Assembly (NCBI GenBank): GCA_034005175.1
Contig: JAVEVF010000002.1
Coordinates: forward strand, 1-44,338
Origin: Coriobacteriia bacterium
GTDB lineage: Bacteria; Actinomycetota; Coriobacteriia; Anaerosomatales; SLCP01
Direction of reading: 5' to 3'
DNA length: 44,338 nt
The notes below the pieces were generated by a model that saw nothing but the letters and a program-made list of their open reading frames with translations, was not told where the DNA came from and did no database searches. Shown one piece after another: positions 2,791 through 31,688 of this stretch (its first letter is position 1; each line of letters begins with the position of its first letter). The translations under genes were made by a program, and so were the position numbers.

Positions 2791-3399
2791 CTACTCCGAA
2801 AGCTCCAGCGCCCGGGCCGGCACGCCAACGACCTTCGCTCCGCCTGCCACATCGTGCAGCACTACCGCGCCCGCACCGAGCACTGCACCGTCCCCCACCT
2901 CGATTCCAGGGAGCACGATGGAGCCTGTGCCACACAGACAGCCTTCCCCCACAGCTGCGCCACCGCCGAGATTGACCCCGCCTGCCAGGTGTGTGAACGA
3001 ACCGACTCGGCAGTCATGTGCCACATAGCAGCCCACGTTCACGATCACCCCGATGCCGAGCTGAGCTTGGGCACTCACGACTGCGTTATGCATGATGAGG
3101 GTGTTTTCGCCCACCTCTGCCGAAGGGCTTACAGAAGCGCTGGGATGGACGAGGACCGGCAGCGGTTCTCCTGCGAAACGCTCGAACAGCCGCTTGCGCA
3201 CCGCCGCATCCCCGATGGCGATGGCTACCGCATCGCGGTCGACACGCGCCGGGTCATCGACGATGGGAAGACCGGTAGGCGAGTGAACCGCTGCTCTCGG
3301 CTCCTCATCGAAGAAGGCCGCAACCTCGTGGCCAAGATCGCTGATAAGGTCAGCCACCTCGCGCGAGAACCCACCCGCACCCACGATCAGGAATCGCAT
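2791..3399 (-). CDS. NeuD/PglD-family hexapeptide-repeat sugar N-/O-acetyltransferase
   Basis: 202 aa. N-terminus MRFLIVGAGGFSREVADLI (Rossmann-like NeuD/PglD N-domain) followed by a left-handed beta-helix region rich in G/V/I hexapeptides. SD GGGAAGGGAG lies upstream of ATG 3399. Confidence 0.85.
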   Translation of the reverse strand: MRFLIVGAGGFSREVADLISDLGHEVAAFFDEEPRAAVHSPTGLPIVDDPARVDRDAVAIAIGDAAVRKRLFERFAGEPLPVLVHPSASVSPSAEVGENTLIMHNAVVSAQAQLGIGVIVNVGCYVAHDCRVGSFTHLAGGVNLGGGAAVGEGCLCGTGSIVLPGIEVGDGAVLGAGAVVLHDVAGGAKVVGVPARALELSE

Positions 3400-3458
3400 C
3401 TATGGCTCCCTTCCCCGCTCTCGGCCACACCCGCCACAGCTTCGGCGTCTCCCCCGCC

Positions 3459-4064
3459 TCACTGAGAAGACCCGTGTGAACCCTCGAATCGCTCAACCGT
3501 CGCATGCCCTTCTTGCGATATGCCCTCTCGGCGAAACACCGCGGCAAACGTCATCATGAGAATCTTTAGGTCGAGGGTGAGCGACCGGTTGTCTACGTAC
3601 CAGACATCATGCTCGAACTTCTGCTCCCATGAGATTGCATTGCGACCGTTGACCTGCGCCCAACCTGTGATGCCTGGTCTGAGCTCGTGGCGGCGTGCTT
3701 GCTCGGCGGTGTAGAGGTCCAGGTACTCGACGAGCAATGGTCGCGGCCCCACCAGGCTCATATCGCCCTTGAGAACGTTCACCAGCTCCGGCAGCTCATC
3801 GAGGCTCGTGCGCCGCAAGAGCCCACCCAGTGCTGTCAAGCGCTGCTCATCGGACAGCATACGACCCTGCGCATCACACGCATAGCGCATCGTCCTGAAC
3901 TTGTACATCGTGAAGATGCGGCCACCCACACCCGGGCGCTCCTGTTTGAAGAACACTCCTGGACCCATTGATATGCGGATTGCGAGCGCGATAGCTATGA
4001 GGAGCGGGCTAAGCACCAGCAATCCGAGAAGAGAGGCTGCGATGTCAACCATCCGCTTGAGCAC
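3459..4064 (-). CDS. pglC: Small monotopic phosphoglycosyl transferase (Bac_transf family), PglC-like Und-P:UDP-diNAc-trideoxyhexose-1-P transferase
   Basis: 201 aa, collinear with C. jejuni PglC as I remember it: [18 protein letters not shown]..., [87 protein letters not shown] start overlaps the upstream stop by 1 nt. Confidence 0.9.
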
Positions 4065-5110
4065 TAGCTCTCGCCTCTCCGCCGCCCCGTGTCAGCTGGC
4101 TGGGTGCCGAGCCGGGTGATCTCTTCCATGATCACCTGCCGGTTCTGCACTGTCCAACCTACCCGGTCCTCAGGCTTGCGCTCGAGCACGACCTCGCCTG
4201 GTGAAGTGACCCGCACGAGCAACCCTCGGCGAATCAACTCGGCATCCACAGCCCCAAGCTCGCCCGCGAAGACCGTGTATGCGGGCGTGCCTAACACGGC
4301 GGCCTCACGGTTCATCGTGCCTCCCGCCGAGACCACGAGGTCAGCCTGCGTGACAAGCGAGGGGCCATCAAGTGCGCGGTCCACGAGAATGGTGCCCTCT
4401 GGCATCGCCGGACGCAGTGCATCGGCCTGCGCGCGCGTGCGAGGGACAACGACGGCACGCACACCCGGAGTGGCGACACACCTCTCAACGACGGCATCGA
4501 ACAGCGCGTTGCCGAACCGGTGATACGTGGACATGGTTGCCGGGGGGCGGAGAAGGGCCATGGTCTCCTGCGGCCGCACGCCGAGCATCTCTCTTACGGG
4601 CTGATCGGCAGGCTCCTCTGCAAGGTAGACGTGCTCCTTGAGCCCGGGAAACCGCACGATTCGAGAGGGTCGTACGCCGAGAGCGACAAATGCCTCGGTT
4701 GGGATGACATCGGGGAACATGACCTCGGTTGCAAGCCGTGTCGTGACCTTGTAGGCAAGCGTTGCATGCTCGTAATCACCGATGATGATCTGCGGGATGC
4801 GCAAGGCCCACGCAGCCACTGCGAGATCGTTGGAGTTGTGGCTGACTGCGACGTCGAAGCGCTTACCGCGACCGAAAGCGATGAGCCGGCTTCCGCGCGC
4901 CAATAACCCCCACGCCTTCTTCACGAGCGAGCGCCCTTGATGGTGCCCGATTATAGTGGCGTCGATGCCTCGCATCTCGAGAAGCTCCACGGTCTGTGCG
5001 AAGTGGCGTGCCGTCACGATCACCTCGTGACCATCGCGCCGCAGATCGGCGATGATGGGCGTGAAGAACAAGACATGCGGCGAGTTCGTCATATCGATCC
5101 AGACTCTCAC
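4064..5110 (-). CDS. DUF354-like protein (predicted GT-B/epimerase-like fold, function unknown)
   Basis: 348 aa. N-terminus VRVWIDMTNSPHVLFFTPIIADLRRDGHEVIVTARHFAQTVELLEMRGID matches my recollection of the DUF354 N-terminal signature (IWIDI.N.PHV.FF.PII..L...GHEV..TAR). GTGA overlap with the upstream GT4 stop. Confidence 0.6.
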   Translation of the reverse strand: MRVWIDMTNSPHVLFFTPIIADLRRDGHEVIVTARHFAQTVELLEMRGIDATIIGHHQGRSLVKKAWGLLARGSRLIAFGRGKRFDVAVSHNSNDLAVAAWALRIPQIIIGDYEHATLAYKVTTRLATEVMFPDVIPTEAFVALGVRPSRIVRFPGLKEHVYLAEEPADQPVREMLGVRPQETMALLRPPATMSTYHRFGNALFDAVVERCVATPGVRAVVVPRTRAQADALRPAMPEGTILVDRALDGPSLVTQADLVVSAGGTMNREAAVLGTPAYTVFAGELGAVDAELIRRGLLVRVTSPGEVVLERKPEDRVGWTVQNRQVIMEEITRLGTQPADTGRRRGES

Positions 5111-6219
5111 CGTGATCGCCCCTTCCGATCGATCGCTGCTCGGCTGATCTCAAGCACCGTGCGAGCGCTCCCCTCCAGAGTGTATCGAACGTCGAGAGCG
5201 GGCAATGCGTAGCCCTCAGGCGCTGACAAGACGCGCTCGAGCGCGTCGCGCAGGCGCGCCGGACTTCCCGGCGTGTACAGCTCACCAGACACACCGCTCT
5301 CGACATGCTCCGGCAACCCGCCTACGTCTGCTGCGACGACGGGCGTTCCCACCGCGCGTGCCTCAAGCGCGATGAGACCCAGCGACTCGCGCCGACTGGG
5401 CACCACGACCGCATCGGCGGCGCGCATCAGCGACGCCAGTTCGTCGCGTTCGACCTGGGCCCGAAAGTCAACTCGGCCGGACAGGCTCCCTGCACGCGCA
5501 CGCTCTTCAAGCCGAGGGCGCCACGGCCCCTGCCCCACCACCACCAGAGCTGCTGTTGCAAGGGAAGGGGCATCGAGCGCCTCAAGCAGCTCCTCGCAGC
5601 CCGCACCTTTGTTGGCGTCAAGCGTGCCAGCAAACAAGAGCAGCGGCCCCGTGGGCCTGAGTCCGAGGTGGGCGCGTGCCTCCTCGCGATCTCCTGGGCA
5701 AAACACCGCGGGGTCCACGCCCATGGGCACGATCTCCGTCTGGTGAAGCGGGCCACCCGCTACCTGCGCCATCTCCTCGGCAAGATATGCACTTGGGGCG
5801 ACGAGGACGTCTGCCGAGCGCATGACACGCCGTGCCGAGCGACCCACCGCATCGCCTCGCGCGGCCAGCAAGACATCGCCACCGTGGGCGAAGAGCACGA
5901 GCGGGACTCGCCGCAAGACAGCGCAAAGACGTCCGGCAGGACCTGTGGGAACGAGGTAGTGCGCGTGAACGACATCGTAGCCGCCGCGCGCGGCTGCCAT
6001 CACGGCCCGCACGTACAGCCCCGCGTACTTCGCCAGCAGCCGCGCACGGCCACTGCGAGGATCCGTTATGGCAACCACACGCACGTCCGCCCCCACCGCG
6101 CGCATGGCTTTGACGGAGTCCCTTACGAAACTCCCGAAATGCATGCGCCGGTCTGACGGATACATGTTGCTGACGACGAGCACCCGCAGTGTCTCGGGGT
6201 TGCGAGAACCGTCCGTCAT
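5107..6219 (-). CDS. GT4-family glycosyltransferase (Glycos_transf_1)
   Basis: RVLVVSNMYPS..., HAHYLVP..., and a C-terminal VVPSRRESLGLIALEARAVGTPVVAADVGGLPE(H)V E-x7-E type motif. Start set at ATG 6219, which forms an ATGA overlap with the upstream stop. The track ORF extends to 6327. Confidence 0.85.
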   Translation of the reverse strand: MTDGSRNPETLRVLVVSNMYPSDRRMHFGSFVRDSVKAMRAVGADVRVVAITDPRSGRARLLAKYAGLYVRAVMAAARGGYDVVHAHYLVPTGPAGRLCAVLRRVPLVLFAHGGDVLLAARGDAVGRSARRVMRSADVLVAPSAYLAEEMAQVAGGPLHQTEIVPMGVDPAVFCPGDREEARAHLGLRPTGPLLLFAGTLDANKGAGCEELLEALDAPSLATAALVVVGQGPWRPRLEERARAGSLSGRVDFRAQVERDELASLMRAADAVVVPSRRESLGLIALEARAVGTPVVAADVGGLPEHVESGVSGELYTPGSPARLRDALERVLSAPEGYALPALDVRYTLEGSARTVLEISRAAIDRKGRSR

Positions 6220-7703
6220 CTCGGCCGGCCACCGAGCACGAGCTGCGCCACACGGCTTGAGCTCACCCACTCGCCATCTCGGGCAGGCGGGCGGACAAGC
6301 ATCTTGCGAGTGGCGCTCGACAGCCACCAGGCCAAGAGCACCTCGGCCACCCGATGACCTGCTTGCACTGTCAGGGATGTTGCAGCGATGCTCGCCCAGG
6401 CGCGTGCTGGCCGAGGTGCGGCGGATGCCGCTGCCGGCTCACGCTCATCGCGCTCGCTGTCCGGTGGTCCTGCCACCACACCGACGAGCACACCTGCGAG
6501 CAGCCAGAAGAACACGGCGGCCTGCGGGTGCTGGAAGGAGTTGCTGGTAAGCGCGTTGAGCGCGAACGCGCCCAGTCCTGCTGCGATCGTGCCTATCTCC
6601 AGACGCATCTGCACCGTGCGCGTGCCATCGAGAAGCGCTCGCACCGCTATCCTCAGCACCGTGAAGATGAGCACCATGAACGCAAAGCCGCCGAACACGC
6701 CGGTCTCGGCAAGCAAGGTGAAATACGAGTTGTGTGCTCCGTAGAACTCAAAGCCAACAGAAAGCGACGGATCGCGCTGTACGGCCTCGGTGAACGCCTG
6801 GTAGAAGGTACCGATGCCCGTCCCCGTGAGCGGTGAGGAGAGAATCACTGCCCCAGCGATTCGCCACAGCCGCAGACGGAAGGCCGCTGATCCATCGATC
6901 GTGCGCAGCGACAACAGCCGAGCTTGAACGCTCGGTGAGAGCATCGCAGCGAGCAGCGGCGCGGCTATGACGACCCAGGCTCGCCGAGGAGCGATGCAAA
7001 GCGCCACTCCCGCAGACGCCACGATGAGGCCCAGCCAGCTGCCGCGTGTATACGTGAGCAACAACATCACAACGGCGCCCAGGCCCATGGCAACCGCCAC
7101 CCATCTGCCGATGCGCCGCTCGGTCACGGCGAGATAGCCGGTCACCGCGATGAGCAAGACGAGAAACTCGCCGTAGAAGTTCGCGTTTTGGAAGGTGGAG
7201 ACCACCCGAAGCGCCATCGAGGGTGCAGCGCTGCCGTGTGCGGCCGCACGCACTTCAAGCAACGTCGTTACGTACCACCAACCACCATAGGCCACAGTCG
7301 CGGTACCAGCGATGGCGACCGCCCACATCACGAACCTGCGCGCGAAAGGATCACGGGTGACGAGCGCCAATGCGCCGACGAGCAGCACATAGGACAAGTA
7401 TCTCGAGAACGTGAGGAACGTTTCGGGCGTCAGTCCCGCTGCAACAACCGAGATGAGCGCGAAGCCGAGGAATACCAGCGCGGGGCCCACGAGCCCGGTG
7501 TCGGTGATAAGCGCACGGCCACGGGATCGGGCAAACGGCACACATGCAAGAAGAGCAAGCGGCACCGTTAGGCTCACGGCATCCAGCGGGATGGGACCGA
7601 TGACGAATCGGCCCTCGTAGAGGGCGACCGCAAAGACCAGCACAGCAACGCCCGCTGCCGCAAGTGCCGCAGGCCAGGGCACGCGGCGTTTCCGCGCCGT
7701 CAT
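6216..7703 (-). CDS. Wzy_C/O-antigen-ligase-family polytopic membrane protein (polymerase or ligase) with a ~85-aa C-terminal tail
   Basis: 495 aa with many hydrophobic helices. Family-typical LLLTYTRGSWLGLIVAS and YGAHNSYFTLLAETGVFGG motifs. Confidence 0.8.
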   Translation of the reverse strand: MTARKRRVPWPAALAAAGVAVLVFAVALYEGRFVIGPIPLDAVSLTVPLALLACVPFARSRGRALITDTGLVGPALVFLGFALISVVAAGLTPETFLTFSRYLSYVLLVGALALVTRDPFARRFVMWAVAIAGTATVAYGGWWYVTTLLEVRAAAHGSAAPSMALRVVSTFQNANFYGEFLVLLIAVTGYLAVTERRIGRWVAVAMGLGAVVMLLLTYTRGSWLGLIVASAGVALCIAPRRAWVVIAAPLLAAMLSPSVQARLLSLRTIDGSAAFRLRLWRIAGAVILSSPLTGTGIGTFYQAFTEAVQRDPSLSVGFEFYGAHNSYFTLLAETGVFGGFAFMVLIFTVLRIAVRALLDGTRTVQMRLEIGTIAAGLGAFALNALTSNSFQHPQAAVFFWLLAGVLVGVVAGPPDSERDEREPAAASAAPRPARAWASIAATSLTVQAGHRVAEVLLAWWLSSATRKMLVRPPARDGEWVSSSRVAQLVLGGRPR

Positions 7704-8278
7704 CGTTCGCCGGCCTCCCAGACAGACGACACGTAGGCGCGCTCGGCCTCCAGACCTGACGTCACGATATCGAGGCGTGAGTTGTTCTGGATCCTCACGC
7801 CGCCGACGAGAAAGCCGAGCGGGTCAGCGGTCCCCTCGGCCGCCACCGTCATGTGGACGTCCACAGCGAGTCTGCTCTCGACCACTACTGAGTCTTCATC
7901 GGCGCCCAGCACCTCGATCTGAGACGGGCGCACCTCTACATCCACGATCTTGCCGAGCCTGCCTGCGACCGAGGAGTACAGATCATCGCCCACCGTGACC
8001 TGAGAGGGGTCGAAGTCACGCACTCCCAGTGCCACCACCTCAAACTCGATATCCACCAGGTCATCGCTCTTGTGCTCGAATATCCCGAAGAGCACGTTCG
8101 CGGCCACAAGCACTGCCACCACAACGATGGCTAGCACAAGCAGATCTATGGGGTTCACGAGTCCAAACAGACGGTTTCGATCGTCGATGAGACGCACGGG
8201 CAGTCCAATCCTATGGGTGGAAGCGGTGGGCTGTGCAATCATATCAGTATGAGAGCTTCGACCCTGCGCCCCACTCAC
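7700..8278 (-). CDS. Single-pass membrane protein, DUF4330-like
   Basis: The segment VRLIDDRNRLFGLVNPIDLLVLAIVVVAVLVA resembles the N-terminus of DUF4330 proteins as I recall them. The true start may therefore be GTG at 8197 rather than the track start at 8278. Translationally coupled to the Wzy-like gene (overlap 7700-7703). Confidence 0.55.
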   Translation of the reverse strand: MSGAQGRSSHTDMIAQPTASTHRIGLPVRLIDDRNRLFGLVNPIDLLVLAIVVVAVLVAANVLFGIFEHKSDDLVDIEFEVVALGVRDFDPSQVTVGDDLYSSVAGRLGKIVDVEVRPSQIEVLGADEDSVVVESRLAVDVHMTVAAEGTADPLGFLVGGVRIQNNSRLDIVTSGLEAERAYVSSVWEAGER

Positions 8279-8368: not shown

Positions 8369-9535
8369 ATGAATCTTCGCGAGTATCTGAGCGTATTGGC
8401 ACGAAGGAAGACCATCGTCATCGCAGTGACGGTGGCGGTCACCGTCGCGGCCGTCGTGGTTGGGCTCCGCTCAAGCGACAAAGCGACTTCTCGCGCTGTC
8501 GCAGCAATACCCTCAGTACGCGCTGAAGGCGTCATCATCCAAATCGCCCCTGAGTTCGCACTTGAACGTGAGGTCGAACTCGCCCGGTCTGAGAAGGTGA
8601 TCGCGCGAGCCGCACAGCAGACGGGGGAGTCAGAAGCCACCATACGTGCGCTCATCACAGTCGGTCCCCCTTCTCCAACGAGCAAGGGCACCATCATCTT
8701 CACAGCCACCGATGTCGACGCCACACGCGCGTCTGAGGTGGCGAATGCTGTGGCGGAGGCATACGTCGTAGTCTCCAACGAGTCTTTGCTCGATGGCCTC
8801 CAGAACTATCTCGATGCAGTGCGCACGGGATCGGCCGAGTCCTCAGAAGAGGCGCTTGCCTTTCTCAAGAGCGCAGGCGACGCTCCCCTCGAACTCTCCG
8901 AGCTCAGCCTGAACCCCCGGGCTTCTGCGCTCGATTCCCGACTTGCCGATCTGCTGGCACTTGTGGACATGGAGTCCGCGCATGCCCAGTTGGTGAGCTC
9001 GGCATCACCTCAGGACGGGGGCGCCGCTGTTGGCCGCAACGCTATCCTCGGTCTGACCCTCGGTCTGTTCCTCGGAGTGGCAGGCGCGCTCGTGCAAGAG
9101 CAGCTGGACGATCGCGTACGCACAGCCGATTCGCTGCGGCATTCGCTCGCCGAGGTGCCAACCATCGATGTGACCGGCGGTTCTGGCTACGCTCCTGAAG
9201 ACGCGCTGCACCTGCTCGCCGCCACACTGATGGCACAACCACCCGCCGGGGAGAAGCGCCTTGCTGTCTCCACCCCGACAGCGCACGCGGGTGGAGTGGA
9301 CATCCTCGGCGGCCTTACTGCTGCATTGGGCGACGAATCGGGCATCACTCTCGTCGATGCGGGTCCCCTGCTCACAGGCGCAGGAATCGCCAGTCTTCAG
9401 TCCGAGGTGAATGGCGTCATCCTCGTCGTCACGAAGGGCGTGACGCGCACATCGGAGGTCACGCAAGCCGCCGACCTCCTGCGCGACCTCAAGCAACCGC
9501 TCCGTGGCGTCGTGCTCGTCGCTGGACGGTCATGA
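8369..9535 (+). CDS. Wzz/CpsC-like chain-length-determinant protein fused to a degenerate BY-kinase-like cytoplasmic domain
   Basis: MNLREYLSVLARRKTIVIAVTVAVTVAAVVVGL (Wzz N-terminus plus TM1), an extracellular helical region, then TM2 AILGLTLGLFLGVAGALV. The C-terminal ~145 aa resemble a CpsD-type P-loop domain, but GxxxxGK(S/T) is replaced by PTAHAGGV. GGGAG SD precedes the ATG. Confidence 0.75.
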   Translation: MNLREYLSVLARRKTIVIAVTVAVTVAAVVVGLRSSDKATSRAVAAIPSVRAEGVIIQIAPEFALEREVELARSEKVIARAAQQTGESEATIRALITVGPPSPTSKGTIIFTATDVDATRASEVANAVAEAYVVVSNESLLDGLQNYLDAVRTGSAESSEEALAFLKSAGDAPLELSELSLNPRASALDSRLADLLALVDMESAHAQLVSSASPQDGGAAVGRNAILGLTLGLFLGVAGALVQEQLDDRVRTADSLRHSLAEVPTIDVTGGSGYAPEDALHLLAATLMAQPPAGEKRLAVSTPTAHAGGVDILGGLTAALGDESGITLVDAGPLLTGAGIASLQSEVNGVILVVTKGVTRTSEVTQAADLLRDLKQPLRGVVLVAGRS

Positions 9536-11007
9536 CACCCGCACCAGCACATGCCCCAGATCTTAGGGTGACAGGGACGGTCTTCGGGCGGGGAGCGCAG
9601 GCGTGCGCGCTCGTGTCTGCTACGATCCTCGTCGGCATAGCTGCGCTCACCCTCGGCCCGCTGTACCTGCTCCCCCTCATTGCGCTTGTTGCCTGGTATG
9701 CGATCATGCGCATCGCCGCCAAGCCCTCCATGGTGTTAGTTTGGATCGCTCTGTACTCACTGCTTGGCGACAAGATGATAGTGAGCACGGGGATTGGCGA
9801 AGGTCAGGGCCTCTTGCGCTTCGGGCCGCTGCTAAGCGTCGTGCTCTTGGCGGCGATGCTCCTCGTCGACAACCACACCCGAATGGCGGCACGCGATGTA
9901 GTGAACTGGGGGACGCCCGCTGTGTTGTTCGCAGCCGCGGGAGCCGTGCTCCCCGTCCTGGGCGTGATGAGCGGTAGCCCCGTGCGCACAATCACAGCTG
10001 CAATCCCTCCGCTGGCTATGGGTGCCTCACTTGTCTTCGGTGTTCTGATCGCACGCAGCGAGATTGACCCGGACCGGGGGCGTTACCTGGTGCTGCTCAC
10101 GGTATCGTGGGCTGCTGCCGCAGTGGCTGCGCTGCTGTTTCTCTTCAACCGCGGCATAGTCCTTCCCCTCGCACGGGAGTTCAACCAGTGGGGCGTCGCC
10201 ACCGCCCAGGCCCACGGCAACACCTGGCTCATCGGACGCACATCCGGTGTCTACACCAGCCCCAACGTACTCGCGATTCTGGGCGGGCTGACGCTGCTCT
10301 TCGCCGTCTTCGGCCGCCTTGTCTTCAGACAGCGCGTTGCCCTCGCCATACCCGCGTTTGCCATCCTGTTCGTGACACAGTCGCGGACGGTGATCTTCGC
10401 CACCGGTGTGGCTATCGTTATCGGAGCTATCTTCGGCAAGCGCCGGCCGGGACTCACGCGGTGGCGGACGATGTTGGGGTGGGCTCTGGTTGTCATGCTG
10501 GTGGCAGCGGCTCTCATCGGTGCCTCAGCCGTGTTTCCACAGTACGTCGAGTCGCTCACAGGTCGCATCACAGCAGCGGTGCGCATCTTTTCCGAGGGAC
10601 CCCAAGCAGATCGCAACTTCGCCGGACGGGTAGCCTTCTGGAAATCCGCCTGGACGCTCTTCCAACAGCGCCCGCTCGGCACGTTGGGTCCCCCCGAGCT
10701 TGCGTTGGGCACAGCGGTGGACAACGACTACCTGCGTTTCATCGTGCAGGGTGGAATCCTTTATGCCGGCATGTGGATCTTTTATGTCACATGGCTTGTC
10801 ACCACAGGGCTTGCGCACGGCGATGACAGGTTCATCGGCGCCGGCGGCATCTTCCTGGCTTTGACCGCACTGGCCCTGACGCCTTCGACCTATGTGATGG
10901 TCATCGGTGTATTCTCCCTCTTTGTAGGGATGCATATCGAGCACATCCGCCGACATAACCTCGAGCCCTGCACGCGGCACCACTCACAGGAAACAGGAGC
11001 GATCTAG
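9532..11007 (+). CDS. Second Wzy_C/O-antigen-ligase-family polytopic membrane protein
   Basis: 491 aa and highly hydrophobic. FVTQSRTVIFATGVAIVIG and VDNDYLRFIVQGGILYAGMW motifs. 4-nt overlap with the Wzz-like gene. Confidence 0.8.
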   Translation: MTPAPAHAPDLRVTGTVFGRGAQACALVSATILVGIAALTLGPLYLLPLIALVAWYAIMRIAAKPSMVLVWIALYSLLGDKMIVSTGIGEGQGLLRFGPLLSVVLLAAMLLVDNHTRMAARDVVNWGTPAVLFAAAGAVLPVLGVMSGSPVRTITAAIPPLAMGASLVFGVLIARSEIDPDRGRYLVLLTVSWAAAAVAALLFLFNRGIVLPLAREFNQWGVATAQAHGNTWLIGRTSGVYTSPNVLAILGGLTLLFAVFGRLVFRQRVALAIPAFAILFVTQSRTVIFATGVAIVIGAIFGKRRPGLTRWRTMLGWALVVMLVAAALIGASAVFPQYVESLTGRITAAVRIFSEGPQADRNFAGRVAFWKSAWTLFQQRPLGTLGPPELALGTAVDNDYLRFIVQGGILYAGMWIFYVTWLVTTGLAHGDDRFIGAGGIFLALTALALTPSTYVMVIGVFSLFVGMHIEHIRRHNLEPCTRHHSQETGAI

Positions 11008-22667: not shown

Positions 22668-24045
22668 AGACGCACGCAAAGGGCTGGGCCTGCGCAAGGT
22701 GGGTCGTGATGCGGGCCAGACCATGGCTGTCGAGATCTGGAGCATCAGCCTCGGGCTTGCGCTTTCCATTCTTCTAGCTCGCACGCTTGGCCCTGAAGGC
22801 AATGGGCTGTACGCGCTTGCTTTGCTCCTGCCGACCACGATGGCCCAGATGCTCAACCTCGGCGTCGCCCCCGCCAACATCTACTACGTAGGCCGAGGAG
22901 AGATATCGCTCTCGCGCGCAATGAAGACGACGACGTGGTTCGGCATCATCCTCGGACTAGTCGGTCTCGTGATGGCTCCGCTGATCGTCCATTACCGCGG
23001 CGCACAGTGGTTCCCAGGCGTCCCCTCGTCGTTGATGCTGCTGGCTTTCGCCGCATACCCCATCGGTTTGTTCCAGGCGTACTACATCACGCTGCTCACG
23101 GCCGTGAAGGACTTCCGGCGCTTCAACCGCACCCTGGCGGTCATGCCAACAGTCACGATCGTACTCGCCGCGCTTTTCATCTTCCCCTTGGGCATGGGGG
23201 TTGCCGGAGCAGTGCTCGCCTACCTGCTCGGCCAGGGCGCTGGCACCATCATGTCCCGCATCTCACTGAACGTGCACCTCAAGGCTGCCGAGGACAGCGA
23301 TGACGGGGAGGGCTGGTGGGAATACGGCCAGCGCTGCATTCGATATGGGTGGAAAGCTCATCTCAGCAACATACTTGCGTACGTGAACTATCGGGCCGAC
23401 GTGTTTCTCGTCAACTTCTTTCTCAATCCAGCGCTCGTCGGCATCTACTTCGTCGCTGTTCAGGTTGCCGAGCGGCTGTGGCTGCCTTCCAAGGTGCTGA
23501 GCACCGTTCTTCTGCCACGCATGGCGGAGATGCACGCGACATCTGACACCCGCGAGATCACCCCGCTCATGAGCCGGCTCGTCTTATGGGGAACGGTGAT
23601 CATCTGTCTACTCGTTGCCGCCGTAGCGACACCGGTCATCAGGTTGTTGTTCGGTGAAGCATACCTCGCCTCGATACCGCCCTTGCTCTGGCTGCTTCCC
23701 GGCATCGCCCTGGCGAGCAGCTCGCGCATCGTGGCAAACGACTTCGCGGCGCGAGGGCGACCCGAATGGAACTCATGGTTGTCTGCTGCCGTCCTCGGCG
23801 TGAACATCATCACCAACATCGTGTTGATCCCACGTTGGGGCCTGAACGGCGCTGCCATCGCCACCACGATCTCATACGTCTTCAACATGGTCGTCAAGAC
23901 GATCATCTACTCGCGCGTCACCAAGTCACCCTGGTACGACCAGGTCGTTCCGCGCGCAGAGGACTTCCGTCTGCTCGCCACCGGCGTTGCCCTCGCTAAA
24001 GACATGGTGCTGAGGAGGCTTCGCCGTGATTCGCAAGACCGATGA
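22657..24045 (+). CDS. Wzx-type (MOP superfamily) polysaccharide flippase
   Basis: Polytopic membrane protein with ILLARTLGPEGNGLYALA near the N-terminus. GTG 22657 is preferred (GAGG 6 nt upstream, 11-nt overlap with the TagF-like gene), with ATG 22723 as the alternative. The track start at 22453 lies inside the upstream gene. Confidence 0.78.
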   Translation: MQAEDARKGLGLRKVGRDAGQTMAVEIWSISLGLALSILLARTLGPEGNGLYALALLLPTTMAQMLNLGVAPANIYYVGRGEISLSRAMKTTTWFGIILGLVGLVMAPLIVHYRGAQWFPGVPSSLMLLAFAAYPIGLFQAYYITLLTAVKDFRRFNRTLAVMPTVTIVLAALFIFPLGMGVAGAVLAYLLGQGAGTIMSRISLNVHLKAAEDSDDGEGWWEYGQRCIRYGWKAHLSNILAYVNYRADVFLVNFFLNPALVGIYFVAVQVAERLWLPSKVLSTVLLPRMAEMHATSDTREITPLMSRLVLWGTVIICLLVAAVATPVIRLLFGEAYLASIPPLLWLLPGIALASSSRIVANDFAARGRPEWNSWLSAAVLGVNIITNIVLIPRWGLNGAAIATTISYVFNMVVKTIIYSRVTKSPWYDQVVPRAEDFRLLATGVALAKDMVLRRLRRDSQDR

Positions 24046-25189: not shown

Positions 25190-25230
25190 ACTCAGCGCTG
25201 CCTGAGCTTCCCTCATCGCCCACTCGCCTG

Positions 25231-25908
25231 CTACTCGCGCACGAACTCGTTAGCGCGTGCGAGATCCTCGGCGAAGTCCACCTCGATGCAGTCCAGATCG
25301 CTGATGTCGACCGGGTAGAGCCGCAGACCCTCCGCGATGGCAAGCTCAAGTCCCCGCTCGAAATAGTCGTTGTCATCAACGACCTCGAGTTTCTCTCTCA
25401 CAAGATCAAGATCGGCAGCCTTGATGAAGTTCACACCCACAGCCTCGCCTAGGCCACCCTCTACCACCTTTGAGACCGCCGAGATCGAACCGTCGGCGGC
25501 GGTCAAGTACTTGACCTCCTCCTCGGCAACACGTGCGGTATTCACCGCCATCGCAGATGTTGGTGAAGCCAGCACCCTGCTAAGCACCCGAGGATCGAAG
25601 ACAACGTCGCCATTGAGGAAGACAGCGTCCTCACCGCGCACTCTTGATAGACCCTTCAGAAGGCTCTTCGAGGTGTTCGTGGAGTCGAACCGCTCGTTGT
25701 AGACGTACGTGAGATCAGGGAACTCCTCGACTATCAGCTCCATCTTGAAACCCACCACCACGATGATGTCGTGGATAGAGAGATGGTTTAGAAGATGGCT
25801 GACCTGCTGTTGCATGATTGATGACCCATTATCGAGCACGGTAAGCGGCTTCGGGAACGGGTTACCGAGGCGTGAGCCAATGCCTGCCGCAAGAATGACT
25901 GCCTTCAT
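25231..25908 (-). CDS. LicC-like NTP_transferase-family nucleotidyltransferase (phospho-alcohol or sugar-1-P cytidylyl/nucleotidyl transferase, substrate unknown)
   Basis: MKAVILAAGIGSRLG...PKPL signature, and overall layout like pneumococcal LicC-type enzymes. Start set at ATG 25908, with GAGGAG SD upstream. The track ORF extends to 26055. Confidence 0.78.
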   Translation of the reverse strand: MKAVILAAGIGSRLGNPFPKPLTVLDNGSSIMQQQVSHLLNHLSIHDIIVVVGFKMELIVEEFPDLTYVYNERFDSTNTSKSLLKGLSRVRGEDAVFLNGDVVFDPRVLSRVLASPTSAMAVNTARVAEEEVKYLTAADGSISAVSKVVEGGLGEAVGVNFIKAADLDLVREKLEVVDDNDYFERGLELAIAEGLRLYPVDISDLDCIEVDFAEDLARANEFVRE

Positions 25909-26055: not shown

Positions 26056-28761
26056 CTAGCTCAATGCCGAGATCCTGCCCCAACACCCGTAGGTGTGCGC
26101 CGTGCGATACTCGACGAACTTCCCTGTCCCCGGAGCATGGATGCTCAAGCCCCAACCGATATACAGGCCCACGTGGTGGATGTTCGAAGGGCTCGATGAG
26201 AAGCACAGATCGCCCGGCATAAGCTGCAGAAAGTCGCGGACTCGGAGGGTGGTCGCGCTCCACATCTGACGCGACGTCCTCGGGGCAGACAGGCCCGCCG
26301 CACGGTATGCATGCATCACAAGGCCTGAGCAGTCGAACTGATCGGGCCCGGTCGCGGCCCACACGTACTTCTTTCCGAGCTGCTGTTTCGCCGCGGCAAG
26401 GACGATGTTTCTGACGGTCGCACGCTCCCCTTGCACATCAAACCCGTCCACCACCACGACGTTGTGCGTGCTCGCGGCGTCTCTGGCGCCAAGCACCTGG
26501 ATGGTGAGCGTGTGCCGCGTGTCGGCGAGCCCGTCTGTGCGCCACACCTCTTGTTGGTGGCTGTACGCCGGTGCATACTGGCTCACCGTGGCCACTCGTA
26601 CGCCATCGAGCACGATGCGCACCTGCCCGTAGCTCGGGCCCACCGGACCCACCCACGCCACCGACGTACCGATGAAGGTGAGCGTGATGGCGGCTCCAGC
26701 GCGACTCGAGTACAGATAGGTGCCACCCGACGTCGCGCTCGAGTTCGCGACGGTCCAGCCTCCCGCACGGGGCGCAGCCTTGTCGGCTTCCTCGAAGCGG
26801 CGCGTCGCTGTACCGCGTACGTTGAACCCATCCACCACCACGACGTTGTGCGTGCTCGCGGCGTCTCTGGCGCCAAGCACCTGGATGGTGAGCGTGTGCA
26901 GCGTGCCGGCGAGCCCGTCTGCGCGCCACACCTCTTGTTGGTGGCCGTACGTGCGCGCATACTGGCTCACCGTGGCCACTCGTACGCCATCGAGCACGAT
27001 GCGCACCTGCCCGTAGCTCGGGCCCACCGGACCTACCCACGCCACCGACGTACCGATGAAGGTGAGCGTGATGGCGGCTCCAGCGCGACTCGAGTACAGG
27101 TAGGTGCCACCCGACGTCGCGCTCGAGTTCGCGGCGGTCCACGCGCCGGTGCGCGCCAGTCGATCATCCCGGTCGTCGACCCTAAGGTTGGTGCTCGGCC
27201 AGCGGGATGGGCTGGCACTCACCCCTTCGAACTCGAAACCATCCACGATGACAACGGTCCCGCTGCTCTGCGGCGCTTTGCGCCCCATAACGCGAATCAC
27301 CACAGCGTGGTATCCGTCACGTAATCCCGCGACCGACCACACCGTCTCGCCGAACGACACGGTAGGCGCATAGAGGTCGACGACTCCAACCAAGCGCCCA
27401 TCGAGGTGGACCTCGGCCATGCCATAACCCGGGCCACGCACGCCTAGCCACCGAAACGCGGTGCCCCAAAACGGCACGACGGCATATGCGTCAGCATGCC
27501 GGGCATACGTGTAGCCTCCACCTGAGGCCGACGACGTGCTGCCAACCGTCCAGGTGCCGCTCGCCTTGATGCGAGCATCGCGTTCTTCGAACCGCGGAAC
27601 CAGCAGCTCAACAGCGGCAAATGCATCAACGGCCACGATGGTGCCCTTGCTGGCGACATCCTTCTCGCCCAGAACCTTGATGGTGAGCGTGTGGCGCCCA
27701 TCAGAAAGCCCGTCAATCGACCAGATGACCTGGCGGTGGGAGGCAGCGGGGGCGTACTGGCTCACCGTGGCACGAAGGATTCCGTCGACGTAGACAGCCG
27801 CGCGGCCGTAGTTGGAATAACGGGGGCCGATCCACGTGACACTTGAACCCGAGAACTGCACGTTGAACGTCGAACCAATCGTCCCCGTGTACAGCAGCGA
27901 ACCACCCGAGGCAGCGGATGTTGCTGCAGTGGTCCACCGACCTTCGCGGAATGTGCGAGAATCGCGCTCCTCGAACACCGCAGTGTCTGGGACGGGTGCG
28001 GTCGTGGCCCCAGAGGTCCCATATACGTCAAAGGCGTCAAGGACGATGATGTTGCTTGTGCTTTGTGGGTCTCGTGAGCCGATGATCTTGAGAACCACCG
28101 TGTGTTTGCCGTTGGCAAGCCCGGAGACGGACCAGACGGTTCTCTGATACGCATAGCTAGGGGCGAACTGGCTGACCGTCTTTGCGAGCCCGCCATCTAT
28201 CCGGATCTCGAAGCGGCCGTAACTTGGACCCACAGGTCCGATGACGCTGAAGCCCGTTCCTGTGAATCGGAATGAAACCGTCGCGTTTGCCGCGCTTGAG
28301 TAGCGGTAGGCGCCACCAGATGCCGCAGCCCCGTTCGCTGCGTGCCACGTGCCCGAGTACGCGAGAGAACCATCGTTCTCCTCAATCCGCTCCGGAGTGC
28401 CGACGGCAGGTACCGCGGACAGGGACTGGGCAAGCGATTCGTCCACGGCGGCAGGCGGCTCGTCGGGTCGCTCCGCGGGTTGCTCTGGAAGCTGCTGCGG
28501 CTGCTCGGACGTCTCGTCAGACTCCGCCGGCACGACATCCGCTGGCGCAGAAGTCTCAGCGGAATGCATCGTCTGCGGCTCAGGCGACACCTCGGAGCCA
28601 AAGTCAGCTGCTACTGACTCGTCGGACGGAAGATCGGCGCGGGCCTCCATGGGCGTCGAACAGAGGATGGCGAGAACGCACATACCCGCCAGGAGCACCA
28701 GCCATCGACAAGTGGAGGTGCGCTTGACGGCGTCGTGGATATGGCTGTGCAGTGCAGACAC
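26056..28761 (-). CDS. Secreted NlpC/P60 peptidoglycan endopeptidase with an acidic/Pro-rich linker and five copies of the shared ~125-aa module
   Basis: N-terminal anchor CRWLVLLAGMCVLAILCS. Modules at aa ~125-776. C-terminal NlpC/P60 domain: QLGKKYVWAATGPDQFDCSGLVMHAYRAAGL ... IHHVGLYIG...IHAP. The start lies 2 nt after the stop of the upstream L,D-transpeptidase gene. Confidence 0.9.
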   Translation of the reverse strand: MSALHSHIHDAVKRTSTCRWLVLLAGMCVLAILCSTPMEARADLPSDESVAADFGSEVSPEPQTMHSAETSAPADVVPAESDETSEQPQQLPEQPAERPDEPPAAVDESLAQSLSAVPAVGTPERIEENDGSLAYSGTWHAANGAAASGGAYRYSSAANATVSFRFTGTGFSVIGPVGPSYGRFEIRIDGGLAKTVSQFAPSYAYQRTVWSVSGLANGKHTVVLKIIGSRDPQSTSNIIVLDAFDVYGTSGATTAPVPDTAVFEERDSRTFREGRWTTAATSAASGGSLLYTGTIGSTFNVQFSGSSVTWIGPRYSNYGRAAVYVDGILRATVSQYAPAASHRQVIWSIDGLSDGRHTLTIKVLGEKDVASKGTIVAVDAFAAVELLVPRFEERDARIKASGTWTVGSTSSASGGGYTYARHADAYAVVPFWGTAFRWLGVRGPGYGMAEVHLDGRLVGVVDLYAPTVSFGETVWSVAGLRDGYHAVVIRVMGRKAPQSSGTVVIVDGFEFEGVSASPSRWPSTNLRVDDRDDRLARTGAWTAANSSATSGGTYLYSSRAGAAITLTFIGTSVAWVGPVGPSYGQVRIVLDGVRVATVSQYARTYGHQQEVWRADGLAGTLHTLTIQVLGARDAASTHNVVVVDGFNVRGTATRRFEEADKAAPRAGGWTVANSSATSGGTYLYSSRAGAAITLTFIGTSVAWVGPVGPSYGQVRIVLDGVRVATVSQYAPAYSHQQEVWRTDGLADTRHTLTIQVLGARDAASTHNVVVVDGFDVQGERATVRNIVLAAAKQQLGKKYVWAATGPDQFDCSGLVMHAYRAAGLSAPRTSRQMWSATTLRVRDFLQLMPGDLCFSSSPSNIHHVGLYIGWGLSIHAPGTGKFVEYRTAHTYGCWGRISALS
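26434..28389 (-). repeat. Five tandem coding copies of the shared module; the last two (26434-26799 and 26818-27183) are near-identical at DNA level with a 384-bp period
   Basis: Copies 4 and 5 share ANSSATSGGTYLYSSRAGAAITLTFIGTSVAWVGPVGPSYGQVRIVLDGVRVATVSQYA exactly. Only scattered nucleotide mismatches were seen by eye. Confidence 0.85.
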
Positions 28762-28762
28762 C

Positions 28763-30307
28763 TCACTCCTGCGTGATGACCATCGTTCCTATCGGCACCT
28801 GAGGGAAGAGTTCGAGCACGTCTTTGTTGTACATCCGTATGCAGCCGGCCGATGCCAGCGTCCCTATACTGGACTGGTTGTTCGTGCCGTGAATCAGGTA
28901 GCTCGAGTACACGTACTTGTAGGTTCCATCGGCACGTTTCGTCTGCCGGTAAAGACGCATCTTGCGAGGACCGTAGACGCTGCGCGGATCGGTGATGTAC
29001 TTCGAGTCGATGCGCCACACAGCAACCGGTGTCCAGCCGTTGCGTCCGTGCGCGACGGGGTAGGACTTCACGAGCTGACCATCCCTGTACCAGTGGAGCC
29101 GAAACTCCGACTTGTCGATGACGATGTAGTGGCGCCACGGGTACCGATGCTTCACGACCGGACGTTTGTGGATCTGCGCAATCCCTTTCGCCCGATCCGC
29201 GACCACGTCAAACGCATCGACCACGACAATGGTGCCGGTGCTCCGGGCGTCTTTCTGGCCGGTCACGCGCACGGTGAGGGTATGCGCGGTGTCGGCAAGG
29301 CCCGAGAGCTGCCAGACCACCTTCTGGTGCGCGTACTCAGGCGCGTAGAGGTTCACGCGATTCATGAGCTTGCCGTCGATGTAGGTCTCGGCGCGGCCGT
29401 ACGACGGGCCCACGGGCGCGACCCACGCAATGCGCGTGCCGCGGAAGTGCAGGGTCATGCTCGCGCCCGCGCTCTTCGAGTAGGCGTAGCCTTTTGCCGA
29501 GGCCGCCGAGGTGGCGCCTGCCACCCATGTCCCTTGGCGGACAAGACGCGTGTCGGACTCCTCGGCGCGTACCCGCGCCCCGTAGATCGCGGCTGCGCTG
29601 GCGGCATCACTTGCCACGTCAAACGCGTCGACCACGACGATGGCGCCGGTGCTCCGGGCGTCTTTCTGGCCGGTCACGCGCACGGTGAGGGTATGCGCGG
29701 TGTCGGCAAGGCCCGAGAGCTGCCAGACCACCTTCTGGTGCGCGTACTCAGGCGCGTAGAGGTTCACGCGATTCATGAGCTTGCCGTCGATGTAGGTCTC
29801 GGCGCGGCCGTACGACGGGCCCACGGGCGCGACCCACGCAATGCGCGTGCCGCGGAAGTGCAGGGTCATGCTCGCGCCCGCGCTCTTCGAGTAGGCGTAG
29901 CCTTTTGCCGAGGCCGCCGAGGTGGCGCCTGCCACCCATGTCCCTTGGCGGACAAGACGCGTGTCGGACTCCTCGGCGCGCACCACATCTGCATCGCCGA
30001 ACGACATCGGCGTCACGACGGAGGGCGCAACCGAAACCGTGGGATCGGGGGCATCGGCAACGGTACCGGTCTCTTCGGGAGCGGTCGTGGATGGTTCACG
30101 TGAGACCGACGCGGTGGGCTCGAACGCTGCGACAGGCGCGGTTGCGTCTTCGCTCGCCCATGCCGGCACCGCTGCAACGAGCATGGCAGCGCTCAAGAGC
30201 GCGCCGACTGCCATCCGACATGAGAACCATCTCCGACGTGCGCGCAATGTGATCCCTCCGATTCCATCAGGCCGAGCGTCAGCTACCCTCAGGAACCATG
30301 CTATCAC
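28763..30307 (-). CDS. Secreted YkuD-family L,D-transpeptidase with two copies of the shared module
   Basis: Signal MAVGALLSAAMLVAAVPAWA. Modules at aa ~109-231 and 246-368. C-terminal YkuD domain: LIHGTNNQSSIGTLASAGCIRM (His / Cys-x-Arg catalytic motif). The start may be ATG 30214. Confidence 0.9.
   Translation of the reverse strand: MIAWFLRVADARPDGIGGITLRARRRWFSCRMAVGALLSAAMLVAAVPAWASEDATAPVAAFEPTASVSREPSTTAPEETGTVADAPDPTVSVAPSVVTPMSFGDADVVRAEESDTRLVRQGTWVAGATSAASAKGYAYSKSAGASMTLHFRGTRIAWVAPVGPSYGRAETYIDGKLMNRVNLYAPEYAHQKVVWQLSGLADTAHTLTVRVTGQKDARSTGAIVVVDAFDVASDAASAAAIYGARVRAEESDTRLVRQGTWVAGATSAASAKGYAYSKSAGASMTLHFRGTRIAWVAPVGPSYGRAETYIDGKLMNRVNLYAPEYAHQKVVWQLSGLADTAHTLTVRVTGQKDARSTGTIVVVDAFDVVADRAKGIAQIHKRPVVKHRYPWRHYIVIDKSEFRLHWYRDGQLVKSYPVAHGRNGWTPVAVWRIDSKYITDPRSVYGPRKMRLYRQTKRADGTYKYVYSSYLIHGTNNQSSIGTLASAGCIRMYNKDVLELFPQVPIGTMVITQE
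29204..29983 (-). repeat. Tandem duplication of the module-coding unit, 411-bp period; 29234-29569 is identical to 29645-29980 (336 bp, 100% by direct comparison)
   Basis: Base-by-base reading of both copies. The two identical 63-aa antisense ORFs in the track (29337..29528 and 29748..29939) confirm it independently. Confidence 0.95.
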
Positions 30308-30329
30308 TCGGCACGGCGTCAGGAGCTAC

Positions 30330-31688
30330 CTATTGGTTCGTCTCATCAGACCAATCACTGCCCACTACGACAAGCACGTCCGTCGAGAAGGCATACATCC
30401 CCCGACTCGGGACGAGCCGTCCTTTCGGCAGCGCGCTCGCCACGGTCTGAGCGGCAGACTCATCATCTCGGTAGACGATGAGAGTCTCCTCGTACACGAA
30501 CTGGTTGGCATTGCCAACCTCCTCAACCTGAAAGCCACGCGCCTGCAGACGGGCGGCAGCTTGCGCGGCCACACCGGAGATGCCGGCACCGTTGCGCACT
30601 GATACCGTGATGTCTTCCGGCGCCTTCTCGACCTCGGGGACGTCCTTCGCTTCGATGTCGCCGCCAGCAAGCATCTGACTCACCAGATGGTTCTTCATCT
30701 CCTCGTCAACCCACACGTACGGGCTCTTCCATTCTCCCGGCAACGTCGCTGCCTGGATATTCTCAGTTCCCACGCCCTTGAACGCCTGCGCGAGGTCTAA
30801 GACCTGCGACATGCTCATATCAGTCACCACGTACTTGGAGAGCTCCTTTGCCATCTTCGGAAGCTTGAGGAGATTGCCCCAGCTTGAAGACTGCTTGGCC
30901 AAAGCCTTGAAGAAGTTCTGCTGATGGCGCATACGCGTGAAGTCCGAGTCCGGGAAGTTGCGGCTGCGCACGTATGTGAGCGCGTACTCCCCGTCAAGAA
31001 GCTGGTAGCCTGGCGCGATGTGACGTGCGCGCCGTCCAGGGCTGTGGCTGGCAGCCTTCGCATCGTTGATCTCTACGTCTACGTCGATGTAGATGCCACC
31101 CATCGCATCGACGATCCCTTGAAAGCCCGAGAAGTCAACTTCCATGTAGTGGTTGATAGGCAGGCCCAGGTACTCTTCGACGGTGTCGATCATCAGACTC
31201 GGGCCACCCATAGCAGTGGCAGCGTTGATCTTGTTCACGCCGTGGCCAGGTATCTCCACCCGGGTATCGCGTGGAATAGACAACATCCACACACGGTGGT
31301 CAGCAGGGTCGACGCGCGCCACGATGATGGTGTCTGCCCGTGCGGCCTCCTCGTCAAGCCGAGCATCACTCCCGAGGAGCAAGAGGTTGAAGGGCTGCTC
31401 TGGCTCCTTCTTGGTGAGCGCTACCTGGACCGCTTCATCCGACTTGACGGTCTGTTGCATGCGGCCTTCGATACCGCGCAAGAAGAAGAAGGACCACGCG
31501 GCGCCAGCGACAAGCAGTACGCCAAGCGCAATGGCAACACCGAGGACTATGCGAGTCGTACGCTTGCGACGCCGTTGTCGGCCTGCTCGAGTGCGCGGCG
31601 CAGCTTCAATGGGCGCGGCCGAGCGGTGCTCGGACGCGCGGTCATTCTGCCGCATGCGCCGGCTCCTTGGCGTGTCGTGTCTACCCAT
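30330..31688 (-). CDS. LCP (LytR-CpsA-Psr) family glycopolymer-to-peptidoglycan ligase with a C-terminal LytR_C domain
   Basis: Cytoplasmic basic N-terminus, TM IVLGVAIALGVLLVAGAAWSFFF, then FNLLLLGSDAR....RADTIIVARVDP...VWMLSIPRDTRVEIPG. The C-terminal ITVSVRNGAGISGVAA...GFQV domain follows. Start set at ATG 31688; the track ORF extends to 31790. Confidence 0.9.
   Translation of the reverse strand: MGRHDTPRSRRMRQNDRASEHRSAAPIEAAPRTRAGRQRRRKRTTRIVLGVAIALGVLLVAGAAWSFFFLRGIEGRMQQTVKSDEAVQVALTKKEPEQPFNLLLLGSDARLDEEAARADTIIVARVDPADHRVWMLSIPRDTRVEIPGHGVNKINAATAMGGPSLMIDTVEEYLGLPINHYMEVDFSGFQGIVDAMGGIYIDVDVEINDAKAASHSPGRRARHIAPGYQLLDGEYALTYVRSRNFPDSDFTRMRHQQNFFKALAKQSSSWGNLLKLPKMAKELSKYVVTDMSMSQVLDLAQAFKGVGTENIQAATLPGEWKSPYVWVDEEMKNHLVSQMLAGGDIEAKDVPEVEKAPEDITVSVRNGAGISGVAAQAAARLQARGFQVEEVGNANQFVYEETLIVYRDDESAAQTVASALPKGRLVPSRGMYAFSTDVLVVVGSDWSDETNQ

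Follow-up and report, generated by a model that had tools for sequence, protein, structure and literature searches.

A 125-residue repeat with a carbohydrate-binding fold is a probable wall-anchoring domain of peptidoglycan-remodeling enzymes encoded in a Coriobacteriia glycopolymer locus

We describe a 125-aa repeat (hereafter the module) carried by four secreted proteins that lie inside or border a glycopolymer locus of a Coriobacteriia bacterium (GCA_034005175.1, contig JAVEVF010000002.1, positions 1 to 44,338; this whole stretch of 44,338 nt is referred to as the window). The proteins are of SpoIID/LytB, NlpC/P60 (P60), YkuD L,D-transpeptidase (LDT) and BNR-propeller type, and our analysis suggests that the module is probably a new wall-anchoring domain. 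How autolysins and surface proteins are anchored in Actinomycetota outside the well-studied genera is largely unknown, and the known anchors (LysM, SH3b, SLH, CWB2 and choline-binding repeats) do not cover these proteins. Our best explanation, to which we give an even chance, is that the module is a clade-specific glycan-binding repeat with the fold of a carbohydrate-binding module (CBM), that it acts as a non-covalent wall anchor, and that its most likely ligand is an acidic polymer of the surrounding locus.

Motif and profile hidden Markov model (HMM) analysis identified 13 full copies of the module (6 in the SpoIID protein, 5 in P60 and 2 in LDT) and one cut copy in the BNR protein. The full copies align without gaps at 40–98% identity and 15 of the columns are invariant, far more agreement than chance would give. 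An earlier reading of the DNA from its letters alone (the sequence-only reading) had noticed a fourth protein that begins the module at the left border, and this is indeed the case: the BNR protein starts it (GKGAAYSGGGYIYGRW) exactly where the window is cut. The module proteins and their parts are as follows.

3..2663, minus strand: secreted BNR/Ycf48-like β-propeller protein with a signal peptide, about five Ig-like repeats and the start of a module; cut by the left end of the window
3..110, minus: partial module of the BNR protein (…GKGAAYSGGGYIYGRWAGTRM), cut off by the window edge
17547..21263, minus: secreted SpoIID/LytB protein with six modules, one N-terminal and five C-terminal to the catalytic core
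20355..20729, minus: SpoIID module 1, aa 179-303
19542..20243, minus: SpoIID/LytB catalytic region, about aa 341-574
19179..19553, minus: SpoIID module 2, aa 571-695
18765..19139, minus: SpoIID module 3, aa 709-833
18348..18722, minus: SpoIID module 4, aa 848-972
17952..18326, minus: SpoIID module 5, aa 980-1104
17556..17930, minus: SpoIID module 6, aa 1112-1236
26056..28761, minus: secreted five-module protein with a C-terminal NlpC/P60 endopeptidase domain; identical to P0011
28018..28392, minus: P60 module 1, aa 124-248
27607..27981, minus: P60 module 2, aa 261-385
27223..27597, minus: P60 module 3, aa 389-513
26812..27186, minus: P60 module 4, aa 526-650, a 96%-identical DNA duplicate of P60 module 5
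26428..26802, minus: P60 module 5, aa 654-778
26095..26376, minus: NlpC/P60 catalytic domain
28763..30247, minus: secreted two-module protein with a C-terminal YkuD domain (LDT); the longest open reading frame (ORF) is 28763-30307
29609..29983, minus: LDT module 1, a 99%-identical DNA duplicate of LDT module 2
29198..29572, minus: LDT module 2
28775..29131, minus: YkuD catalytic domain

Each catalytic assignment is above its model's cut-off: TIGR02669 for the SpoIID/LytB protein (184.7 versus 83.3 bits), NlpC/P60 (69.6 versus 23, with the motif DCSGLV visible) and YkuD (83.5 versus 23.4, with SAGCIRM visible). A sporulation SpoIID ortholog was rejected as an identity for the first of these, the TIGR02870 equivalog score (140.7 bits) being below its cut-off of 234.75. 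In the same protein, a GHGxGxSQxGA-type motif lies near the N-terminus (aa 58-97) and the PF08486 core at aa 341-574; one module sits between them and so divides the catalytic region. For LDT there are three candidate starts, GTG 30307 (the longest ORF), TTG 30247 and ATG 30214 (the database copy, P0118), of which TTG 30247, with GGAGGG six bases upstream, looks best. Residues ~440-860 of the BNR protein comprise about five ~100-aa repeats ('GPGKMRHSTDGG…W…DGTKTV.AEF.D..GN') with only faint Big_3_3/OmpL47-type similarity, which may represent an undescribed Ig-like repeat; no relatives of this protein were found in the metagenome scan.

Domain searches of the four module proteins, all of which have signal peptides, found no other wall-binding domain and no membrane anchor, and no CWB2 (PF04122) repeats were found in the proteins of the window. 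As far as domain content can tell, the module is the sole candidate targeting domain of these secreted enzymes. Its copy number is labile. One whole module is tandemly duplicated at the DNA level in the LDT gene (29203-29913; 99% identity, 411-nt period) and one in the P60 gene (26441-27124; 96% identity, 384-nt period). Copy number ranges from 1 to 4 among LDT orthologs and from 4 to 8 among P60 orthologs, and this variation suggests that the arrays expand and contract quickly.

To place the module structurally, we relied on an AlphaFold model (pLDDT 95.8), which is a 12-strand β-sandwich. The top solved structures found with Foldseek are carbohydrate-binding jelly rolls, namely the C-terminal domain of BT_2959 (3nqh) and, at TM 0.6–0.74, the xanthan-binding module MiXBM (7ehg), CBM36, CBM35 (2wz8, E 8e-4) and CBM6, as well as the N-domain of CE2 (2wao, 2waa). 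A sequence search of the PDB returned 3nqh as the sole weak relative and no CBM35, and NCBIfam holds no model that covers the module. Whole-protein scores for PF17996 (CE2_N) are 112.5, 59.9 and 30.7 bits, against a gathering cut-off of 27.9, with the match to each copy being partial (profile positions ~14-81 of 108) and mostly faint; a literature search found no paper that mentions PF17996. Judged by the model, the module is a β-jelly-roll of the CBM6/35/36 type, a distant and divergent relative of PF17996/CE2_N that forms a clade-specific branch. Identity as a CE2 esterase was rejected, since an SGNH/lipase_GDSL domain was matched in none of the four module proteins.

Residues that are near-invariant across the family include W16, S25-G27, D66, H97 and D119. 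Position 74 is D in 82% of the family ('VDxY', e.g. Asp74-Leu75 in 'VDLY'), versus 'VSQY' (Ser-Gln) in most copies of the window's clade (columns 74-75 correspond, for example, to 20505-20510 of the window); exceptions are P60 module 3 and the LDT modules, in which D or N is found. The replacement of Asp74-Leu75 by Ser-Gln may mark a change in ligand or metal binding.

The module belongs to a very large family. Searching a word index with the module profile returned just 7 matches, which is misleadingly sparse compared to the 19,993 cluster representatives (E≤1e-3) obtained by exhaustive HMM search, 1,970 of them at E≤1e-30. Many of these homologs carry 4-16 copies. With an alignment of four modules as query, a scan of species-representative genomes yielded 70 loci, from Coriobacteriia-type metagenome-assembled genomes (MAGs), which are the closest, other Actinomycetota, Chloroflexota, Verrucomicrobiota, Planctomycetota and Acidobacteriota. 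Metagenomes scanned for the module gave only 6 loci. Fusion partners of the homologs include wall-active domains (NlpC/P60, SpoIID, YkuD, Polysacc_deac_1, Amidase_2, Amidase_3 and many GH25 lysozymes) and others that are not obviously so, namely subtilases, CAP, Ig-like arrays, LRR plus FN3, malectin-domain proteins, ADP-ribosylglycohydrolase and GH141-like proteins. In a viral library, the fold occurs in minor-tail and tail-fiber proteins of Gordonia, Arthrobacter and Rhodococcus phages. Because the module spans so many phyla and unrelated partner proteins, fold and family alone imply no particular ligand. Among individual loci, a 1.6-Mb contig (L004, 1-17970) encodes five consecutive module proteins of 807-1341 aa, with 4-6 copies each, accompanied by an S8 protease and Amidase_3, and in an Actinomycetota MAG (L081, 6138-11965) a two-module GH25 lysozyme ends a string of GT4, GH5-like and PLD-like genes, a context unlike the others.

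Genomic context is more informative within the window's own clade. For each locus retrieved, ORFs in all six frames were searched with the locus proteins of the window and the module HMM; in the clade, modules score ~115 bits or more per copy. Polysaccharide genes were found near the module in 10 of 11 clade loci versus 5 of 68 others (P = 2e-8), and an LCP gene was in view in 6/11 versus 0/68, these loci not being phylogenetically independent. Three relatives (L001, L002 and L003) repeat the gene order of the window, atp-murA-fabZ-UDP-sugar dehydrogenase-LCP, (PgdA-module), LDT-module, P60-module, and further on SpoIID-module next to PglF. In L002 a three-module Polysacc_deac_1 protein (a PgdA-type deacetylase) is inserted directly after LCP, and L003 keeps the module proteins and has neither TagF nor the nucleotidyltransferase. 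L075 retains LCP-LDT-P60, and in L005, L006 and L009 the SpoIID-module gene adjoins TagF or PglF. L011 is rearranged, with LCP-SpoIID-module followed by PglF and no LDT/P60/TagF block; in L007, the slot beside PglF is occupied by an Amidase_3 protein with five modules; and in L082 a SpoIID protein with two modules lies amid a different glycopolymer locus, 4 kb from LCP. The linkage between module and locus in the clade survives gene gain, loss and rearrangement.

These comparisons also bear on which parts of the locus matter. A TagF-type glycerol-phosphate as a required epitope was rejected, as L003 and L011 keep module proteins without TagF and the nucleotidyltransferase; these two genes, which the sequence-only reading had counted as part of the association, are dispensable to it. 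The TagF-like gene (21462-22667) and NTP_transf_3 (25231-25908) are both present in the window, L001 and L002 and both absent from L003 and L011, and their joint presence or absence fits an optional two-enzyme cassette for decoration with a CDP-alcohol-derived phosphate. The order wecA-atp operon-murA-fabZ-(UDP-sugar dehydrogenase)-LCP is conserved in the clade (window 33597-43334, L001-L003, L082, L084 and L086), with the atp operon missing between wecA and murA in L086; beyond LCP, the DNA is variable.

As a reverse test, we collected the loci of relatives starting from LCP orthologs. In one sister lineage (L084; GCA_030603745.1), LCP is 66.6% identical to that of the window and has the same position in atp-murA-fabZ-UDP-sugar dehydrogenase-LCP, and no module was found within 21 kb, even at E≤1. 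Instead, the region between the GT4 and Wzx genes (14318-21299) encodes BNR_4 with three CWB2 repeats, three CWB2 repeats with YkuD, and an S8 protease with CWB2. The YkuD domain of L084 is 55% identical to that of the window over 144 residues, and 58% over 127, the same 58% as for the module-bearing YkuD ortholog of L010. The polysaccharide genes differ, Wzx being 21% identical to its counterpart in the window and the GT4 proteins 26-36%. The sequence-only reading had pointed to co-variation of anchor and polymer as something to look for; judging from these genes, anchor type and polysaccharide genes changed together at one conserved locus (n = 1). This swap is the strongest single support for the polymer as ligand, yet it is one case. 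Another LCP-containing locus, L086, has sugar-nucleotide genes and no such wall enzymes in the 8 kb before its contig ends; L087 was left out of the comparison on account of its fragmentation. CWB2 is usually discussed for Clostridia, and its occurrence in a Coriobacteriia-like genome is notable in itself.

The locus in the window (G+C ~63%) is of the Wzx/Wzy type and runs leftwards from 31.7 kb; the right third of the window holds wecA-like, the atp operon, murA, fabZ and a nucleotide-sugar dehydrogenase. Besides the LCP ligase, TagF-like phosphotransferase and Wzx flippase, the locus encodes five GT4 glycosyltransferases, two Wzy_C proteins, a Wzz-like protein, DUF354 and DUF4330 proteins, a TviC-like epimerase and a PglF/PglE/PglD/PglC-like set.

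2791..3399, minus: PglD/NeuD-type sugar N-acetyltransferase (PglD_N, Hexapep; TIGR03570 191.8 bits versus cut-off 160.8)
3459..4064, minus: PglC-like small polyprenyl-phosphate glycosyl-phosphotransferase (Bac_transf)
4064..5110, minus: DUF354 protein (GT-like)
5107..6327, minus: GT4 glycosyltransferase
6216..7703, minus: Wzy_C membrane protein (polymerase/ligase-like)
7700..8278, minus: DUF4330 protein
8369..9535, plus: Wzz-like chain-length determinant (weak match)
9532..11007, plus: second Wzy_C membrane protein
11008..11970, plus: NAD-dependent epimerase, TviC-like (UDP-HexNAcA 4-epimerase type)
11931..13133, plus: GT4 glycosyltransferase
13130..14317, plus: GT4 glycosyltransferase
14318..15661, plus: DegT/PglE-type aminotransferase
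15658..17550, plus: PglF-like membrane UDP-GlcNAc 4,6-dehydratase (Polysacc_synt_2)
21462..22667, plus: TagF-like CDP-alditol:polymer phosphotransferase (Glyphos_transf; PF04464 160 bits)
22453..24045, plus: Wzx-type flippase (Polysacc_synt); true start probably downstream, homologs 457-461 aa
24026..25189, plus: GT4 glycosyltransferase
25231..25908, minus: NTP_transf_3 nucleotidyltransferase, final gene of the LCP-LDT-P60 string; 225 aa, as in relatives
30330..31688, minus: LCP glycopolymer-peptidoglycan ligase (LytR_cpsA_psr + LytR_C); ORF extends to TTG 31790
31836..33215, minus: nucleotide-sugar 6-dehydrogenase (UDP-ManNAc/GlcNAc dehydrogenase type)

The layout largely bears out what the sequence-only reading had said of it. 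The locus is free of mur/fts division genes (its immediate neighbors on the right are murA and the atp operon), and the three module proteins are indeed outside a dcw-type cluster, and one of them, SpoIID/LytB, is encoded between the pglF-like and tagF-like genes, convergent with the former (4-nt overlap) and divergent from the latter (198-nt spacer). LCP, LDT, P60 and NTP_transf_3 form a head-to-tail string on the minus strand, which agrees with the claim that the P60/LDT pair is directly downstream of LCP and next to the nucleotidyltransferase. The two gaps given for it fare less well: the LCP-LDT gap depends on the LDT start (22 nt from GTG 30307, as claimed, 82 nt from TTG 30247 and 115 nt from ATG 30214), and the LDT-P60 gap is 1 nt, not 2. 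A consensus scan found no terminator between the four genes, a result that is uninformative; the promoter/terminator scan gave nothing above shuffles. The BNR gene follows the PglD-like gene on the same strand at a distance of 128 nt. The longest-ORF starts of Wzx (22453-22667), LDT (30214-30307), LCP (31688-31790) and the NTP transferase (25908-26055) are probably too far upstream, as homologs are 30-75 aa shorter, and the apparent 215-nt overlap of TagF and Wzx is likely an artifact of ORF calling.

With respect to chemistry, LCP scores above its model cut-offs (LytR_cpsA_psr 146.3 bits versus 24.6; TIGR00350 131.4 versus 62.3). All four PglF-, PglE-, PglD- and PglC-like domain families are present, with only the NeuD/PglB/VioB subfamily model above its cut-off, and the NTP_transf_3 protein matches IspD/TarI-type models only weakly. 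Because the locus includes a UDP-HexNAc 6-dehydrogenase-type enzyme and a TviC-like epimerase, its polymer would contain a uronic acid and is probably acidic.

We propose the following scheme. Synthesis of the polymer would be initiated by PglC, with a diNAcBac-type sugar supplied by the PglF/E/D-like enzymes and a hexosaminuronic acid added; the chain may be decorated by TagF and the nucleotidyltransferase, and would be exported by Wzx/Wzy and finally ligated to peptidoglycan by LCP. The resulting acidic secondary wall polymer would serve as ligand for tandem arrays of 2-6 modules, which would hold secreted peptidoglycan-remodeling enzymes on the cell wall non-covalently, by avidity. The enzymes so held would be a SpoIID-type glycan-strand hydrolase, an NlpC/P60 endopeptidase and an L,D-transpeptidase, to which relatives would add a PgdA-type deacetylase and an amidase.

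Several observations weigh against the polymer of the locus as ligand. The module family is very broad, extending to diderm phyla and wall-unrelated proteins with no LCP nearby. In L004 the five module proteins in a row have no glycopolymer genes in their vicinity, and in L010, a clade member, an LDT (four modules)/P60 (eight modules) pair sits beside selA/selB, with no glycopolymer gene within 20 kb. General synteny (atp-murA-fabZ) extends over the clade loci, and some of the conservation is therefore inherited. The order atp-murA-spoIID is also that of Bacillus subtilis, for which a literature search on murAA-spoIID adjacency gave no explicit statement, and old synteny may account for where SpoIID lies after atp-murA. 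Finally, the anchor swap is a single case, and P0179 carries one CWB2 repeat plus modules, so module and CWB2 are not strictly alternatives. The sequence-only reading had suggested that the locus polymer positions these enzymes and that module and locus should co-vary, with conserved synteny, across related genomes. In the clade this is partly borne out: the fold is that of a CBM, the module is the only targeting candidate and 10 of 11 loci show the linkage. It does not extend to the family overall, which does not track such loci; none of the 68 other loci has LCP nearby, and the module is common in Chloroflexota, Verrucomicrobiota, Planctomycetota and Acidobacteriota.

A first alternative concerns the ligand. 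The module might bind peptidoglycan glycan strands or some generic wall component, its clustering with the locus coming from envelope co-regulation or inheritance, and we regard this as unlikely, if the most serious of the alternatives. All catalytic partners in the clade act on peptidoglycan, and family members in other Actinomycetota are joined to GH25, Amidase_2 and NlpC/P60 at loci where LCP is not nearby. The L010 pair lies away from any polymer locus, and for the Ape1 esterase, retention on peptidoglycan through a CBM35-like domain has been proposed. The Bacillus-like order would also explain part of the SpoIID position. However, a non-enzymatic BNR/Ig protein bears the module as well, and the equivalent L084 proteins use CWB2, a known polymer anchor and not a peptidoglycan anchor. 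The slot beside PglF in L007 holds a different module-bearing hydrolase, with Amidase_3 as its head, so the linkage is not only SpoIID inheritance; and the change of D74 to S in most copies is specific to the clade.

We weighed two further explanations. The module enzymes could be accessories of polymer attachment, which prepare or edit peptidoglycan acceptor sites for LCP by cutting, deacetylating and re-crosslinking, and are co-transcribed with it for that reason, the module giving general wall affinity. The head-to-tail arrangement of LCP, LDT, P60 and NTP transferase with short gaps, its recurrence in L001, L002, L003 and L075, and the deacetylase directly after LCP in L002 are in keeping with this idea. 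We nonetheless consider it improbable: the enzyme set varies freely among relatives, with module or CWB2 as the constant feature, L086 combines LCP with sugar genes and shows none of these enzymes over 8 kb, and no LCP system is known to require dedicated hydrolases. Least probable is that the modules are inert β-sandwich stalks with no specific ligand, spacers that project the catalytic heads through a thick envelope. Arrays of 5-16 copies in giant proteins, together with Ig-like domains, would suit such a role; the 15 invariant positions in the window, the residues near-invariant family-wide, the ligand-binding CBMs as nearest folds and the replacement of the module by a known binding domain in L084 all argue against it.

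Anchoring to the locus polymer, the explanation we prefer, has parallels in known systems. SLH domains recognize pyruvylated secondary cell wall polymer (CsaB), and choline-binding repeats recognize phosphocholine teichoic acid; the logic of a dedicated anchor for a secondary wall polymer, positioning autolysins, is the same here, although the folds are unrelated and neither csaB nor lic genes were seen in the window, where no search was aimed at them. The closest known system is that of CWB2 and PSII in Clostridioides difficile, where the genes of the PSII locus alternate between lcpA/lcpB and those for cell-wall-binding proteins of the CWB2 type, an amidase and cwp84 (PMC5065235). The proteins of the window belong to none of the CWB2, SLH and CE2 families, and our claim is that the system here would work like that of C. 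difficile, not that it is the same. In both, a tandem non-covalent anchor (a candidate in our case) is common to secreted proteins with different heads (amidase, protease, L,D-transpeptidase-type), and genes for the anchored proteins are interleaved with a Wzx-type glycopolymer locus containing LCP. Unlike CWB2, which forms a triplet, the candidate in the window is a jelly-roll CBM-like domain in 2-6 copies, and the host is an uncultured high-GC Coriobacteriia-like lineage for which anchoring is a prediction.

A second parallel concerns fold. According to a summary of Montanier et al. 2009 (PMC6174289), CBM35 modules anchor hydrolases to the producer's own bacterial wall via uronic acids. The module resembles CBM35 in fold class (Foldseek CBM35, CBM36, CBM6), in its proposed wall retention and in the probable uronic acid of the locus polymer. 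In contrast to CBM35, it occurs in tandem arrays and has no membership of that family by sequence (the likeness is of fold only), its best sequence relatives being PF17996 and 3nqh. With CE2_N (PF17996) it shares the jelly-roll fold (2wao, 2waa) and scores above the gathering cut-off; unlike CE2, the window proteins have no SGNH esterase domain, and the module is fused to peptidoglycan enzymes.

A wider reading, which we hold tentatively and somewhat below even, is that the module represents a new family of non-covalent wall anchors whose specificity tracks the neighboring polymer locus and which swaps with CWB2 in one clade as polymer chemistry changes. On this view, the ~20,000 clusters would make up a so far unrecognized repeat that binds envelope glycans generally in monoderm Actinomycetota and Chloroflexota and has been reused in the tail proteins of their phages. 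If the anchoring model is true, a CBM-fold repeat would be seen to target peptidoglycan enzymes to a specific wall polymer, the list of anchor families would grow by one, and the use of module or CWB2 at one locus would offer a natural experiment on anchor/polymer co-evolution. It would also help to annotate large secreted proteins, now 'hypothetical' in their thousands, and suggest new binding domains for engineered lysins or cell-surface display. Should the ligand turn out to be peptidoglycan, the module would still be a new peptidoglycan-binding domain family, with an ordinary locus context. A very large uncharacterized repeat family would gain a testable function.

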